A DNA stretch of 64,000 nucleotides, taken from positions 14,308 to 78,307 of the forward strand of contig MHGA01000006.1 in NCBI GenBank assembly GCA_001804415.1. The letters are read 5' to 3'. The stretch is from Candidatus Aquivivens invisus (GTDB lineage: Bacteria; Omnitrophota; Gorgyraeia; Aquiviventales; Aquiviventaceae). The notes beneath the pieces are model-generated. The model saw only the letters and a list, made by a program, of their open reading frames with translations. It had not been told where the DNA came from and did no database searches. Shown one piece after another: positions 1,806-28,088 of this stretch. Positions within the stretch are counted from its first letter, which is position 1, and each line of letters opens with the position of its first letter. The position numbers and the translations under genes are program-made.

Positions 1806-3233
1806 TCAAAACGCTATGGCCGAGGAGAGGAGACGGAGAAACGGCTCCTGCACGGTGCCGATGATGACGATGCCAAGGAGCAACAGGAAGAGGACGGCCC
1901 GGCTGATGCCGTCCACCGCGATCGGCTTCGAAGACGCAGGCTTCAGCAGGTACATGCGCCGCACCACACAGAGATAGTAGTACAGCGAGATCGCCACGTT
2001 GAGGCCACCGATCGCCGCCAGCCAGAGCCGATGGCTCTCGACGGCCGAGAGCAGCACGAGCAGCTTGCCGACGAATCCGGCCAGCGGCGGCACGCCGGCC
2101 AGCGACAACAGCGCCACGAACATCGCCGCCGCCAAGAAGGGCGAGCGGTGCGAGAGACCGTTGTACTCCTCCAGCGAGTCGCCGGGGACGATCATCACGA
2201 CGAAGAACGCCGCGAGGGTGCTGACCAGGTACGCCAGGAGGTAAAAGCCCACCGCCTGCGCGCCGGAGAGCAACCCGCTGCACAGCCCCATCAGCAGATA
2301 TCCTGCGTGGCCGATGGAGGAATAGCCGAGCAGCCGCTTGACGTTGGTCTGCGGGATCGCGGCGAGGTTGCCGTACAGCAGGGTCGCGGCGGAGAGCGCG
2401 GCGAGCACGGCCGTCCACACCGCCGCAACCGGCAAGGCCACCGAGTAGAGTAGGCGCAGCAGGACGATCATCCCCGCCATCTTCGAGCCGACCGACAGGA
2501 GTGCCACCACCGGGGTGGGCGCACCCTCGTAGACATCCGGCACCCAGAGATGAAACGGCACGGCCGCCACTTTGAATCCCAATCCCGCCAAGACCAGGAA
2601 CAACCCCGCGAGCACATTCGGGCCGGCCGGGCCGGAGGCCAACAGCGCGCGGAGCGCCTCGAATCCTGTGCCGCCCGCCGCGCCGTAGAGCAAGCTGATG
2701 CCGTACACCAGGAACCCCGAGGAGACAGAGCCCATGATCAGGTACTTCATACCGGCTTCGATGGAGCGGGGATCAGTCTTGACGTACGCGGCCATGACGT
2801 ACAGCGAGAACGTCAGCAGCTCCAAGGCGATGAACAGCAGCAGCAGATCGTTGATGGACGCCAGCACCAGCATCCCCAGCAGTGCGGAGAAGATCAAGAG
2901 GTAGAATTCTCCAAGGTGGGTGATGGCCAGCGGGTTCGCCTGGCGCATCATGGCGATCACGACCGCGGTGGTAATCAGGAAGAGCCACTTGAAGGTGAAG
3001 GCGAACCCATCAAAGAGAAACATGGGTCCGAAGGCCTGCCCGAGCCAACGCGATTGCCATCCCAGCACCCACGCCAGCACCCCGATCCCCAGCATCGCCA
3101 GGCTCCACAGCCGGCGCTGGCGCTTGCCGCGTTCCAGCCCCGCGAACCGGGGGGTGAGCAGCGCATCGCCCGCCAGCAGGACGGCGATCCAGCCGCAGAC
3201 GGCAAGCTCAATCGCGACAACCGGCCAATTCAT
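1806..3233 (-). CDS. nuoN: NADH-quinone oxidoreductase subunit N
   Basis: 14-TM antiporter-like subunit, NuoN-type N-terminus, follows nuoM. Confidence 0.85.
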   Translation of the reverse strand: MNWPVVAIELAVCGWIAVLLAGDALLTPRFAGLERGKRQRRLWSLAMLGIGVLAWVLGWQSRWLGQAFGPMFLFDGFAFTFKWLFLITTAVVIAMMRQANPLAITHLGEFYLLIFSALLGMLVLASINDLLLLFIALELLTFSLYVMAAYVKTDPRSIEAGMKYLIMGSVSSGFLVYGISLLYGAAGGTGFEALRALLASGPAGPNVLAGLFLVLAGLGFKVAAVPFHLWVPDVYEGAPTPVVALLSVGSKMAGMIVLLRLLYSVALPVAAVWTAVLAALSAATLLYGNLAAIPQTNVKRLLGYSSIGHAGYLLMGLCSGLLSGAQAVGFYLLAYLVSTLAAFFVVMIVPGDSLEEYNGLSHRSPFLAAAMFVALLSLAGVPPLAGFVGKLLVLLSAVESHRLWLAAIGGLNVAISLYYYLCVVRRMYLLKPASSKPIAVDGISRAVLFLLLLGIVIIGTVQEPFLRLLSSAIAF

Positions 3234-3248
3234 CTGTAGAAGATGTAA

Positions 3249-4814
3249 TCATCTAACAATCTGTGTAATCGAGGTCTGCTCTTTAGCTATATGCACTTCG
3301 AGAGGTTGCGCGGGTGCCAGGGTGCGCGCGACGAGCGGGCGCGTGGAGAGATCAATCAATCGCACCAGCGGCTTGGGCCAGCATCCCACGATCAACAGTG
3401 CTGCGATCAACACCACATACGGGAGGCGGGCAAACGGGGTGGCGGCGTCTTTCGCGTGGGCGAGGCTCTCGTTGGCGCCTCCGAAGAACACCCCGCGCAC
3501 CATCCGCAGCATGTACACCGAGGTGATCACGATCCCCAGCACCGCCAGCACCGCCTGCAGACGGTACCGATCCCACGACCCGAAGATCACCATCATCTCC
3601 GCCACGAAGTTCGCGAATCCCGGCAGGCCGCTGGACGCCATGGCGGCCATCACCCCGCAGGTGGCGATGAACGGCAGGCGCTTCGCCAGCCCTCCCAGCT
3701 CCGGCAGGGAGCGCGTGTGCGTCTCGTCGTAGATGTGGCCGACCAGCGCGAAGGCGAGCGCCGTCATCACCCCGTGCCCGAACATCAGCAACACCGCACC
3801 GTTGAGCGAGAGCGGAGTGAGCGCACAGATCCCCAGCAGGACGTAGCCCATGTGGCTGGAGGAGGAGTACCCGATGATGAACTTCAAATCTTTCTGGGCC
3901 ATGGCGACCAGCCCGCCGTAGATGATGTTCATCGTGCACAGCCCGGCGATCCACGGCAGCCACGCCTGCGCGCCGAGGGGCAGGAGGTTCAGCGGCAGGC
4001 GGATGATCGCGTAGGAACCCAGCTTCATCAGGACCGCCGCATGCAGCATGCTCACCGCCGACGGAGCCGCGGCGTGTCCGATAGGCGACCAGCTATGCAG
4101 CGGCCACAGCGGCGCGATGACCCCGAAGCCCACCGCCAGCAGGGGAAAGATCCACCACTGCAACCGGGCGTCCAGCGGATGGGCGCGCAGATGCTCCTCC
4201 AGCGCGACCACGTCAAAGGTCTGCGCCCCGCAACTGACGTACAGCCACAAGAGTCCGATCAACGCCAGCACCGCGCCGGAGGTGAGGTAAATCGTCAGCT
4301 TCATCGCGGCGTATTCTTTCGAGAACACCACCCGGCCGCCTTCCTTGGTATCGCTGCCCCAGACGCCGATGAGCGGATACATCGGGATCACCGCCATCTC
4401 GTAGAAGAAGTAGAAGAAGAACAGATCCAGCGACAGGAACACCCCGAACACGCCGGTGATGAGCAGCAGGTAGAAGAGATAGTATTCCTTCACGCGCTCC
4501 TTGATGGCGTACGAGATCAGCACGCCGGCGAAGGCGCAGATCGCATGCAGCAGCACCAGCACGGCGCTGATCCCATCCACCCCGAGGTGAAACCCGACGC
4601 CCAGCGCGGCGATCCACGGCACCTCCACGTGGAACTGATATCCACCGGAGGAGCGGTCGAAATTCGTCACCACCCACAGCGCGGTCAGCAGCGGGATGAA
4701 GGTCGCCCCCACCGCCACCCGCCGGATGAGGCGGATCTCTTGCCGGGGGAGCCACAGCAACAGCATCACGCCCATCGCCGGCGCCAGCAGGATCATCAGC
4801 AGCGGACTCATCAT
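3249..4814 (-). CDS. nuoM: NADH-quinone oxidoreductase subunit M (start ATGATGA overlapping nuoL stop)
   Basis: NuoM-type sequence; ATG at 4814 overlaps TGA of nuoL (4811-4813); the longer ORF to 4931 is rejected as extension. Confidence 0.85.
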   Translation of the reverse strand: MMSPLLMILLAPAMGVMLLLWLPRQEIRLIRRVAVGATFIPLLTALWVVTNFDRSSGGYQFHVEVPWIAALGVGFHLGVDGISAVLVLLHAICAFAGVLISYAIKERVKEYYLFYLLLITGVFGVFLSLDLFFFYFFYEMAVIPMYPLIGVWGSDTKEGGRVVFSKEYAAMKLTIYLTSGAVLALIGLLWLYVSCGAQTFDVVALEEHLRAHPLDARLQWWIFPLLAVGFGVIAPLWPLHSWSPIGHAAAPSAVSMLHAAVLMKLGSYAIIRLPLNLLPLGAQAWLPWIAGLCTMNIIYGGLVAMAQKDLKFIIGYSSSSHMGYVLLGICALTPLSLNGAVLLMFGHGVMTALAFALVGHIYDETHTRSLPELGGLAKRLPFIATCGVMAAMASSGLPGFANFVAEMMVIFGSWDRYRLQAVLAVLGIVITSVYMLRMVRGVFFGGANESLAHAKDAATPFARLPYVVLIAALLIVGCWPKPLVRLIDLSTRPLVARTLAPAQPLEVHIAKEQTSITQIVR

Positions 4815-14015: not shown

Positions 14016-14336
14016 GTGATTCGACGCTCGCGTCGTGTCGTCATCATGGGGCTCGCCGTCTGTTGGAGCCTGAGCGGTCCGGCACAACCGGTGTCGGCAG
14101 ATGCCCTTGGGGATCTTGTTGGAGGGCTTGGGCAGCTGCTCATCGGCGCGTTTGCCATTCCGGTTGAAGCCATCCAGGGGACGCTCAACGGGCCGCCGAT
14201 TCTTGGGACCATCGGCGGCATCCTCAGCGGGACGGTCCATACGGTCGGTTCAACACTGGGCGGGGTGCTGCAGATCGCCAAATCCGTCGTCCCCCTCGCC
14301 ACCTCCCTGGTGCCATTTCTTCCCTGGGTTCTCTAG
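14016..14336 (+). CDS. Small secreted Gly-rich protein, divergent member of the small secreted paralog family (see 37489, 47084, 56874)
   Basis: SD AGGAGG 4 nt before GTG; signal peptide; shares PxEAIQG...G...GG..H.V block with paralogs. Confidence 0.55.
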   Translation: MIRRSRRVVIMGLAVCWSLSGPAQPVSADALGDLVGGLGQLLIGAFAIPVEAIQGTLNGPPILGTIGGILSGTVHTVGSTLGGVLQIAKSVVPLATSLVPFLPWVL

Positions 14337-25866: not shown

Positions 25867-26568
25867 ATGCGCGCATTGATTCGAACGTTCCAGCGACGGG
25901 TGGTGCGGTGGTACGCGCGCCACCAGCGGAGGCTACCGTGGCGGCGGACGCATGATCCCTATAAGATTCTGGTCTCGGAGATCATGCTGCAGCAGACCCA
26001 GGTGGATCGCGTCATCCCCAAATACCGCGAATTCCTAAAGCGGTACCCCACCGTCGAAGACCTGGCGAAGGCGCGGCCAACCGAGGTTCGCAAGCTGTGG
26101 TACCCGCTGGGCTACAACATCAGGCCGCTGCGCCTGCGCAGGATCGCCAAGCAGGTTGTGGAGCAACACGGCGGCTCAATCCCTGGGTCGTATGACGGCC
26201 TGCTGGCGATGGACGGGATCGGCCGGTACACCGCAGGCGCGGTGCTGAGCTTCGCGTTCAAACAGGACGCGCCCATTCTCGATACGAATGTAGCGCGACT
26301 ACTCTCGCGCTATTTCGGCATCCGAGCGTCTCTCGCGCGCGGGAGGACGCGGCGTCGTCTCTGGGACCTGGCTGCGGCGGTGATCCCCACAGGGCATGGC
26401 TACACCATCAACCAGGCGATGATGGATTTCGGCGCCTTGGTGTGCACGGCACACAACCCTAAGTGTCCCACCTGTGTCTTGCGTCGATCGTGTCGGAGTT
26501 ATCCGTATGCGGCCGCTGCCTCACGTGCGCGTGGTACCCACCTGCAAGGTCGCCCTCGCCGTCGTTGA
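25867..26568 (+). CDS. mutY: A/G-specific adenine glycosylase MutY, catalytic HhH-GPD plus 4Fe-4S domain only (reading frame ends early)
   Basis: HhH motif, CTAHNPKCPTCVLRRSC cluster loop. Confidence 0.75.
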   Translation: MRALIRTFQRRVVRWYARHQRRLPWRRTHDPYKILVSEIMLQQTQVDRVIPKYREFLKRYPTVEDLAKARPTEVRKLWYPLGYNIRPLRLRRIAKQVVEQHGGSIPGSYDGLLAMDGIGRYTAGAVLSFAFKQDAPILDTNVARLLSRYFGIRASLARGRTRRRLWDLAAAVIPTGHGYTINQAMMDFGALVCTAHNPKCPTCVLRRSCRSYPYAAAASRARGTHLQGRPRRR

Positions 26569-26980
26569 GCGGCGCAAGCGCTACCTGATCTGCCGGCGCC
26601 GCGCCGATGCTCATTTCGGCGGCTACTGGGAGTTCCCAGGCGGGAAGAAAGAGGCACGGGAATCATGGGAGGCGTGTCTTCGTCGGGAGCTTCGAGAGGA
26701 ATTAGGCGTGTCGGTGCGGGCGTTGCGAGGGTTCGGGCGTCTGCAGCACCGATATCCTGATCGCCGGATCTCCTTTCGGATCTATCGCTGTCAGATCGCG
26801 CGTGGGCGCCCCAAGCCGTTGGGGACCGCAGACATCCGGTGGGCGACGGCCGAGGAGCTACCGCGCTACCGTTTCCCGCCCGCCGATCTGGCGTTGATTG
26901 CTCGCCTGACTGAAGCAGGGTCGTTGCCTCGTCGTCGACGGCATGCTATACTAACAAGACAGAGGAGGAATCGCTCATGA
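26507..26980 (+). CDS. NUDIX-fold domain corresponding to MutY C-terminal domain, in a different frame (frameshift or split gene)
   Basis: YWEFPGGKKE NUDIX-like block; overlaps mutY ORF by 62 nt. Confidence 0.55.
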   Translation: MRPLPHVRVVPTCKVALAVVERRKRYLICRRRADAHFGGYWEFPGGKKEARESWEACLRRELREELGVSVRALRGFGRLQHRYPDRRISFRIYRCQIARGRPKPLGTADIRWATAEELPRYRFPPADLALIARLTEAGSLPRRRRHAILTRQRRNRS

Positions 26981-27303
26981 TTGCACTGACACCAACAGCG
27001 GTTGAGGAAGTGAAACGGCTGATCGCCAAAGAACAGAAGCCGAACCTGGCTCTGCGTCTCGGGGTCAAGGGGGGCGGGTGCTCCGGCTTCAGCTACCAGA
27101 TGCTCGTGGACGAGGCGACGCCGAAGACCTACGACACCACCTTCGAGCAAGATGGCGTCAAAATCGTCGTTGATGCAAAGAGCCATCTCTACCTGGATGG
27201 CACCACCATCGACTTCAAGAGTGGTTTGGTCGGCGGTGGGTTTGAATTCAACAACCCGTTGGCCAAGAAGAGCTGCGGGTGCGGCTCATCGTTCAGCGTG
27301 TAG
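26977..27303 (+). CDS. erpA: A-type iron-sulfur carrier (ErpA/IscA/HesB family)
   Basis: C-terminal CGCGSSF, 108 aa. Confidence 0.85.
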   Translation: MIALTPTAVEEVKRLIAKEQKPNLALRLGVKGGGCSGFSYQMLVDEATPKTYDTTFEQDGVKIVVDAKSHLYLDGTTIDFKSGLVGGGFEFNNPLAKKSCGCGSSFSV

Positions 27304-27735
27304 AGTCTGAGCCTACTGCCTTCCGAACAGCCTTACAAAGTCTTCACGGTTGAAGAAGCCAACGCGCTCCTGCCTCGCGTTCGCCCGCTCGTCGAGCAGC
27401 TTCGGGCGCTGCAAGGCTCAATCGTCACGACCAACGAGCAGCTCGACGAGAAAGTGCACAAGCTCTCCGGAGGAAACGGCTATCCCTTGCAGGACCTGCG
27501 CCATCACATCGAGAAGCTGACCCGGCATCAGCTCCAACTGATCGAAGCCTTCCATTCCGCCCTCCAGCAGCTTGAGGAACTGGGGTGCGTGTTGAAAGAC
27601 CTCAGCCTCGGCCTGATCGATTTCTATACCGTGCGTGACGGCGAGCCGGCGTTCCTGTGCTGGAAGCTGGACGAAGAGACCGTACGGTTTTGGCATCCGC
27701 TCGATGCCGGCTACGCCGCCCGCCGACCCCTCTAA
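27304..27735 (+). CDS. DUF2203-like hypothetical protein with no canonical start codon; the frame opens directly after the erpA TAG in the same frame
   Basis: Conserved-looking N-terminus KVFTVEEANALLP begins 7 codons after TAG; first ATG/GTG only at 27454. Confidence 0.4.
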   Translation, partial: SLSLLPSEQPYKVFTVEEANALLPRVRPLVEQLRALQGSIVTTNEQLDEKVHKLSGGNGYPLQDLRHHIEKLTRHQLQLIEAFHSALQQLEELGCVLKDLSLGLIDFYTVRDGEPAFLCWKLDEETVRFWHPLDAGYAARRPL

Positions 27736-27737
27736 GC

Positions 27738-28088
27738 ATGGAATCCCGCCCGATCCCGTTTCACAAGATCCTCTTCGTGTGCGTCAACCGGAGGGCTGCG
27801 AACGAGATCTGCTGCGCCCATCGGGATAGCGAGACGATCGCCGCTCAGCTCAAGGAGCGCATCAAAGCCCTGGGGTTGTCTCGCGTCGTGCGGGTCAGCA
27901 AATCAGGATGCCAAGATCTCTGCGCGAAGGGGCCCAACGTGATGGTGTTTCCGGACGGTGTGTGGTATGACGGGGTGACGCCTACGGATGTGGAGCAGAT
28001 TATTCAGGACGCGATCCGTGACGTGCCAGGTGCACGAGCGCTTCCCGTACCACCAGCACCGCCAGTCCCAGCAAGACCAGGGCGATGA
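27738..28088 (+). CDS. Thioredoxin-like [2Fe-2S] ferredoxin (NuoE-like fold)
   Basis: Cys pattern FVCVNRRAANEICC...SGCQDLCAKGP; 3' end overlaps cstA on opposite strand. Confidence 0.65.
   Translation: MESRPIPFHKILFVCVNRRAANEICCAHRDSETIAAQLKERIKALGLSRVVRVSKSGCQDLCAKGPNVMVFPDGVWYDGVTPTDVEQIIQDAIRDVPGARALPVPPAPPVPARPGR

Follow-up and report, generated by a model that had tools for sequence, protein, structure and literature searches.

What usually defines the adenine DNA glycosylase MutY is a C-terminal domain resembling MutT, which reads 8-oxoguanine (8-oxoG) through an H-x-FSH loop (PMC11078426) and which, in canonical MutYs, has no Nudix box (PMC5389931). Escherichia coli MutY from which this domain has been removed in the laboratory retains glycosylase activity, with a diminished preference for 8-oxoG:A (OG:A) pairs (PMC10993402, PMC9266487). 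Two kinds of natural protein come close to this truncated form or depart from the canonical one in another way. The MIG glycosylases (Mig.MthI, PDB 1kea) are about 220 amino acids (aa) long and have the HhH-GPD and [4Fe-4S] elements without a C-terminal domain; the residues corresponding to V45 and Q182 of E. coli MutY are the adenine specificity determinants that tell MutY from Mig.MthI, which has Ala50 and Leu187 at these positions (PMC2714593). MutYX of Eggerthella is a clusterless MutY, in which the Fe-S cluster has been lost and the C-terminal domain is a non-Nudix "X" domain (PMC12631127). Here we compare these systems with a locus of Candidatus Aquivivens invisus (assembly GCA_001804415.1) in which an open reading frame (ORF) for a MutY-type catalytic domain overlaps, in a different frame, an ORF for a Nudix protein. 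The window, by which we mean the whole stretch of DNA analyzed, comprises 64,000 nucleotides (nt), positions 14,308 to 78,307 of the forward strand of contig MHGA01000006.1.

We consider it very probable that both ORFs are intact genes, each translated on its own within a single, translationally coupled operon (mutY-core/mutT-like/iscA), and not parts of one broken gene. A preliminary description of this DNA had seen here a single mutY split into catalytic and C-terminal parts. Its coordinates were borne out: the HhH-GPD/[4Fe-4S] ORF, with a Pfam HhH-GPD domain and a four-cysteine motif at residues 193 to 209, does stop at 26568, and the Nudix ORF does run in another frame from about 26507 with a 62-nt overlap. 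Its identification of the second ORF as the 8-oxoG-recognition domain of MutY did not hold, because that ORF has an intact Nudix box and is of the MutT type. The features of the locus, in window coordinates, are as follows.

25867..26568, plus strand: ORF1 (gene 1), predicted MutY-type adenine DNA glycosylase with the HhH-GPD/[4Fe-4S] catalytic domain only; 233 aa, ATG start
25975..26004, plus strand: SEIMLQQTQV motif of ORF1, with catalytic Glu38, the Gln/Thr residues and Val46, from alignment to E. coli MutY
26275..26289, plus strand: ILDTN motif of ORF1, with catalytic Asp139 (E. coli D138) and Asn141
26410..26427, plus strand: NQAMMD motif of ORF1, with Gln183, the equivalent of E. coli Q182 and MutY-type (Leu in MIG)
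26443..26493, plus strand: [4Fe-4S] ligands of ORF1, C-X6-C-X2-C-X5-C, Cys193, 200, 203 and 209
26494..26497, plus strand: GGAG, likely Shine-Dalgarno sequence of gene 2, within the conserved Cys-Arg-Ser codons of ORF1 (TGT CGG AGT)
26507..26980, plus strand: ORF2 (gene 2), predicted MutT/NudG-type Nudix pyrophosphohydrolase; 157 aa from the ATG at 26507
26507..26568, plus strand: overlap of ORF1 and ORF2, 62 nt, in different frames
26642..26710, plus strand: complete Nudix box of ORF2, GKKEARESWEACLRRELREELGV (GX5EX7REUXEEXGU), residues 46 to 68
26753..26767, plus strand: YPDRR of ORF2, a MutT-type motif at the site of the H-x-FSH loop in the MutY C-terminal domain
26977..27303, plus strand: gene 3, predicted IscA/HesB-type Fe-S cluster insertion protein

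To place the two ORFs among their relatives, we used the 120 best database matches for each ORF, the 80 closest metagenomic loci, and a set with one genome per species. All 120 best homologs of ORF1 were 215 to 296 aa long and contained HhH-GPD only, without a Nudix domain, and none of the closest relatives (about 215 to 250 aa) was fused. The 120 best homologs of ORF2 were free-standing Nudix proteins of 126 to 175 aa, and many homologs of the two ORFs sat on contigs of the same size. In the species-representative genomes, every ORF1 match with at least 52% identity was short, and a Nudix gene lay directly downstream of 11 of the 17 short genes; these 11 pairs came from Omnitrophota, Nitrospirota, Rokubacteria, and Acidobacteriota/Vicinamibacteria. 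No fusion occurred among the 80 metagenomic loci: in 72 of them a same-strand Nudix gene came after the short gene, 3 had no Nudix gene within about 2 kb, and 5 were truncated or uninformative, so that the pair was present in 72 of 75 informative loci. The same split architecture was found in relatives at 55 to 84% identity. The comparison with orthologs that the preliminary description had proposed thus found them to be split as well. Furthermore, pairwise distances between the short MutYs correlated strongly with those between their neighboring Nudix proteins (Mantel r = 0.85, 73 loci), a value that none of 999 permutations reached. The pair is inherited as a unit.

The junction between the two genes varies among these relatives. 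Omnitrophota had overlaps of 62, 47, and 26 nt; outside that phylum the overlaps were 8, 4 (ATGA/GTGA), and 1 nt. Among the species-representative loci, start-codon gaps ran from 5 to 97 nt, and the Nudix gene of some metagenomic loci lay hundreds of nucleotides downstream. All three relative frames of the two genes (0, +1, and +2) were represented. In five loci (L101, L102, L133, L137, and L150) the genes shared one frame and were separated by one in-frame stop, and the Nudix gene had its own ATG; a single point mutation in these loci would give a fused MutY-Nudix protein. In the Omnitrophota relatives, ORF1 stopped at the same site, on the Nudix codons for V or I followed by E, S, or K, and the stop codon at that site was TGA, TAG, or TAA. 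Termination of ORF1 at that position is itself conserved. In the window, the stop codon is the TGA at 26566 to 26568, which takes its T from the third position of Nudix codon V20 (GTT) and its GA from the start of codon E21 (GAG).

The second gene has a start codon and a likely Shine-Dalgarno sequence of its own. The ORF2 reading frame, which is +1 relative to ORF1, is open from a GTG at 26474 and contains the in-frame ATG at 26507, with a spacing of 9 nt between this ATG and the GGAG at 26494 to 26497. The sequence CGGAGTT also preceded the Nudix ATG in three relatives (L093, L096, and L098), and the GGAG is likely the ribosome-binding site (RBS) of gene 2. Alternative GTG starts at 26525 and 26531 would give proteins of 151 and 149 aa, respectively, and the overlap would still be 38 nt with the more downstream of them, at 26531.

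The sequence itself proved reproducible. At least 24 contigs, drawn from NCBI bins, ENA assemblies, and JGI metagenomes, encoded the exact 233-aa ORF1 protein, and the junction (26440 to 26620) was identical to that of the window in all 10 loci compared. Nine of these loci had 0 to 15 substitutions relative to the window over the compared stretch, and the tenth lost register upstream. One locus (L084) carried 7 substitutions within ORF1, and since they leave the protein unchanged, all are synonymous. That an assembly indel caused the two frames is very unlikely.

ORF1 matched MutY more closely than any other glycosylase with which it was compared. Pfam assigned it HhH-GPD (73 bits) and HhH, and its best matches in the PDB were MutY catalytic domains, at 179 to 184 bits (184 for E. 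coli MutY, 1kg4), compared with 139 bits for MIG and 65 bits for endonuclease III. It scored 242.8 bits against the NCBIfam mutY model TIGR01084 (cutoff, 286.5; profile positions 2 to 210 of 277) and 215.4 against NF008132 (cutoff, 427), falling below the cutoffs only because the C-terminal part of the profile has no counterpart in it. In alignment to E. coli MutY, E38 and D139 of ORF1 correspond to E37 and D138, and V46 and Q183 correspond to V45 and Q182. Among the ORF1 homologs (alignment A1), E38, V46, Q183, and the four cluster cysteines were invariant and D139 was at least 90% conserved; Gln42, Gln43, Thr44, the wedge residue Tyr83, and Asn141 were also conserved. In MutY, the Gln/Thr residues of SEIMLQQTQV contact the 8-oxoG strand. 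The polypeptide ends about 24 residues past the last cysteine and has no C-terminal MutT-like domain with an H-x-FSH loop. Its last 20 or so codons encode a basic tail overprinted on the Nudix N terminus, and this overprinting on the start of the Nudix gene accounts for the apparent conservation of the tail (R-x-R-R-H).

Compared with the canonical MutYs of E. coli and Geobacillus stearothermophilus, ORF1 likewise has HhH-GPD, the four [4Fe-4S] cysteines, the catalytic Glu and Asp, the wedge Tyr of LGY, and the Val and Gln of the adenine pocket; it differs in lacking both a MutT-like domain at the C terminus and an H-x-FSH loop and in belonging to a separate clade. Its signature is LGYNxRPxRL, whereas that of E. 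coli MutY, and of a fused MutY (P0310) described below, is LGYYxRARNL. In domain content, and nearly in length, it resembles the catalytic fragment of E. coli MutY (residues 1 to 225; 1muy and 1kg2, among others), which aligns to ORF1 residues 7 to 210. That fragment is an artificial truncation, however, whereas ORF1 is a natural, conserved gene maintained by selection in several phyla. MutYX and ORF1 are both natural MutY variants off the canonical MutT-like C-terminal domain, and they are opposite on two counts, ORF1 keeping the cluster and having no C-terminal domain. We also considered membership of ORF1 in the MIG family, which it resembles in size and domain content, and rejected it on the pocket residues, which are Val46 and Gln183 and not Ala and Leu.

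A neighbor-joining (NJ) tree of N-terminal domains, built from the species-representative loci and the window, placed the 17 short proteins in one clade with 91% bootstrap support, apart from the canonical full-length clade; being midpoint rooted without an outgroup, the tree does not give the direction of change (prefusion state versus fission). This short clade of MutY homologs spans Omnitrophota, Nitrospirota, Rokubacteria, Acidobacteriota, and other groups and is never found with a C-terminal domain that resembles MutT. A short MutY of the clade, at 57% identity, also occurs without an adjacent Nudix gene in an Asgard bin (Candidatus Hermodarchaeota archaeon, JAEOUH010000010.1, locus L008), where it could reflect horizontal transfer or be a binning contaminant.

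ORF2, in turn, was assigned NUDIX_4 and NUDIX by Pfam. The core G-x5-E-x7-RE-x2-EE was kept in all 78 aligned neighbor Nudix proteins, and E52, R60, E61, E64, and E65 of ORF2 were invariant in the corresponding alignment (A2). Common to the 78 proteins were the MutT-like motifs YP(D/E)(R/K) and FPPAD, for which Klebsiella MutT (7syc) has FPDRH and FPPAN. Alignment to 7syc showed that ORF2 has YPDRR, not H-x-FSH, at the position of the 8-oxoG-recognition loop, where FSH was seen in canonical MutY loci. The best NCBIfam model was PRK08999, "Nudix family hydrolase" (114.7; cutoff, 245); PRK10776 gave 93.3 (cutoff, 148), and the full-length MutY models in NCBIfam did not match ORF2. A profile of the ORF2 family scored 95 to 125 bits against MutT structures and 103.5 against E. 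coli MutT, compared with 48.5 against the C-terminal domain of G. stearothermophilus MutY. (The E. coli MutT sequence in the neighbor alignment and in the comparison with fused MutYs was entered by hand; its motifs were confirmed through the alignment to PDB 7syc.) An AlphaFold2 model of ORF2 had a pLDDT of 90.2, and its top Foldseek matches were the free enzymes MutT, MutT2, NudG, and BdRppH (TM scores of 0.8 to 0.91), with MutY ranking 50th. Because of its intact Nudix box, its MutT motifs, the ranking of profiles and Foldseek matches, and the absence of H-x-FSH, ORF2 is, as judged from its sequence and predicted structure, a MutT/NudG-type hydrolase and not a detached MutY domain. It shares with MutT, NudG (ORF135), and MutT2 the Nudix fold, the complete box, YPDR, and FPPA(D/N), and it differs from them in that a short mutY almost always lies immediately upstream of its gene and often overlaps it.

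The preliminary description had also offered the possibility of a genuinely split, two-protein MutY. The two-gene arrangement stands, and the second protein as a MutY domain does not, given its MutT/NudG-type features. A more specific version of this proposal is that the Nudix protein, with or without hydrolase activity of its own, binds the short glycosylase and recognizes 8-oxoG in trans, so that the two form a two-subunit MutY. The nearly obligatory adjacency (72 of 75 loci), the tight codivergence of the two proteins (r = 0.85), and the overlaps, which make translational coupling likely, are all in keeping with such an arrangement. So are naturally occurring proteins that join a MutY N-terminal domain to a Nudix domain of this kind (P0310, with the box and YPDR; L031, L034, and L059, with the box and H-x-FSH) and the diminished OG:A preference of MutY without its C-terminal domain. 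We nevertheless regard a two-subunit MutY as improbable, since ORF2 lacks the loop that touches 8-oxoG in MutY, its catalytic Nudix residues are as strictly conserved as those of an enzyme would be, and its family lies among thousands of free MutT-like proteins. Moreover, an adjacent Nudix gene is missing for 6 of the 17 short MutYs among the species-representative genomes and for 3 of the 75 from metagenomes.

The other possibilities all take the two frames to encode, or to have once encoded, a single polypeptide. The first is that a once-fused mutY of about 370 aa was broken in this lineage, leaving a defective enzyme and a mutator genotype, one of the alternatives offered in the preliminary description. 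A 1-nt edit within the overlap does give one ORF of about 370 aa, as calculated from the coordinates and close to the roughly 365 aa foreseen; a fused architecture with a similar Nudix domain also exists elsewhere (P0310). However, the 80 closest metagenomic loci, the species-representative loci at 52% identity or more, and the 120 best matches did not include a single fusion, and the short clade extends across several phyla. Both genes bear the marks of purifying selection (invariant catalytic residues and, in L084, only synonymous changes in ORF1), the ORF1 stop is held by three different stop codons while the relatives use frames 0, +1, and +2, and an ATG with a likely Shine-Dalgarno site belongs to ORF2 itself. 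If ribosomes underwent programmed +1 frameshifting within the overlap, some MutY-Nudix fusion would be made beside the two separate products; this is consistent with the +1 frame and the 26- to 62-nt overlap of those Omnitrophota that share the overlapping junction of the window. Against it, no slippery motif is conserved in the overlap, whose sequence differs from relative to relative, as does the place of the Nudix ATG; frameshifting at the stop codon would omit Nudix strand β-1; and in sister lineages the two genes are separated by gaps, overlap by 4 nt, or lie in other frames. The conserved pair, its variable junction, the retained stop, and the likely Shine-Dalgarno site and ATG of ORF2 therefore rule out a frameshift lesion and speak against frameshifting of the programmed kind; we give very little credence to either. 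A sequencing or assembly indel confined to this contig would have in its favor only how often errors of this sort generally occur when metagenomes are assembled. The identical junction lies on 10 contigs that come from different assemblies (NCBI, ENA, and JGI) and are set apart elsewhere by substitutions, and the same architecture recurs in the more distant relatives, so that the probability of such an error is close to nil. On this sequence evidence, we judge that the locus is functional and that the frameshift idea is wrong.

In the two-gene reading that we prefer, the three genes would be cotranscribed and translationally coupled, with the RBS and start codon of gene 2 inside the 3′ end of gene 1. 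The Nudix enzyme would hydrolyze oxidized or otherwise aberrant (deoxy)nucleoside triphosphates, for example, 8-oxo-dGTP, and the short glycosylase would excise adenine mispaired with G or 8-oxoG, the pair together forming a compact module against oxidized guanine. Several observations weigh against this reading. The score of ORF2 with the NCBIfam MutT model TIGR00586 (93.6 bits) is just below the trusted cutoff of 97.9, Asp in ORF2 takes the place of the Asn of FPPAN found in the MutTs of E. coli and Klebsiella, and the nearest solved relatives of ORF2 include CTP/dCTP and RNA pyrophosphohydrolases, which leaves the substrate of ORF2 uncertain. The scan for promoters and terminators gave consensus-level matches only, with no terminator between the genes, and was uninformative. 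Finally, truncation of E. coli MutY diminishes its OG:A preference, which raises the question of how a naturally short MutY gains enough specificity.

According to a hypothesis attributed to Noll et al. in 1999, MutY itself arose by fusion with a MutT-like gene. One possibility, which we regard as doubtful, is that the mutY-core/mutT-like pair preserves the unfused arrangement that preceded canonical MutY; in a stronger form of the idea, the MutT-like partner may already cooperate physically with the short glycosylase in 8-oxoG recognition. The five same-frame loci with a single intervening stop are compatible with a prefusion reading. Full-length MutYs with a complete C-terminal Nudix box were found in Nitrospinota, Planctomycetota, and Anaerolineae (L028, L031, and L034, each at 3001 to 4071; L059, at 3001 to 4047; P0310; and P0348). 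Most of them also have an H-x-FSH-like loop; P0310 has a MutT-type YAYPDR and no FSH. With a profile of the neighbor Nudix proteins, these box-bearing fused MutYs scored 111 to 158 bits and E. coli MutT (the hand-entered sequence) scored 101.6, whereas canonical C-terminal domains without a box scored 15 to 75 bits or gave no match. This gradient, as a comparison of sequence profiles, fits the 1999 fusion hypothesis, the direction of change not being settled by the tree.

The names given to the two families in GenBank are already "adenine glycosylase" and "pyrophosphohydrolase/MutT." In the literature that we searched, we found no description of a multiphylum MutY clade without the C-terminal domain or of the nearly constant association of such a clade with a mutT-like gene that is catalytically intact. 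A study of Lost City authenticated MutYs by a feature of the C-terminal domain, discarding candidates without it, and stated that the origin of the oxidized-guanine (GO) repair system is unknown (PMC11078426). Set beside the usual definition of MutY by that domain, a clade that spans several phyla without it keeps every catalytic and adenine-pocket residue. It offers a natural system for asking how OG:A specificity is achieved without a fused C-terminal domain and whether MutY originated by loss of a stop codon in such an operon.

Other MutY-like and Nudix proteins came to light in these searches. The box-bearing full-length MutYs may be bifunctional MutY-MutT enzymes or intermediates in MutY fusion. 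The same MutT-like Nudix family is also fused to a uracil-DNA glycosylase of the UDG superfamily (P0317), to a PD-(D/E)XK nuclease (P0386), and to a 2Fe-2S ferredoxin domain (P0251 and P0253), and this variety suggests repeated recruitment of the family to DNA repair or redox contexts. Nine MutY-like proteins of about 290 to 350 aa from Chloroflexota and other groups (L016, L019, L025, L030, L036, L041, L048, L056, and L063, the match beginning at 3001 in most of these loci) carry a non-Nudix C-terminal extension and were placed near the short clade in the NJ tree. A PDB sequence search with the extension of L016 gave no match. The extension may represent one more substitute C-terminal domain, in concept like that of MutYX.

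The ATG of gene 3 overlaps the stop codon of gene 2 (ATGA), and this iscA-like gene probably belongs to the same operon as the pair. An iscA-type gene was kept 3′ of the pair in four Omnitrophota loci (L007, L092, L094, and L095), and it may be linked to loading of the [4Fe-4S] cluster of the glycosylase. A frame test based on GC content at third codon positions favored the ORF1 frame (0.78 versus 0.62 and 0.49); for ORF2 it did not discriminate between frames (0.66 versus 0.67) and was not used. A search of the 64-kb window for a second mutY or Nudix paralog found none. Farther downstream, at 27316 to 28088, lies a DUF2203 gene whose start differs by assembly (93, 139, or 142 aa); it is overlapped by an ORF at 27657 to 28088 with a weak match to a thioredoxin-like 2Fe-2S ferredoxin, and the gene models there are unsettled.

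For annotation, these results mean that the locus is to be treated as neither a pseudogene nor a mutator allele and that both ORFs should be called. In three GenBank bins (L082, L085, and L089; GCA_001805925.1, GCA_001804485.1, and GCA_001805685.1, respectively) the Nudix ORF is uncalled, leaving a gap between the glycosylase and iscA genes, probably an annotation loss due to the long overlap. The Prodigal-based ENA and JGI annotation of the same locus does call the Nudix ORF, at 157 aa.

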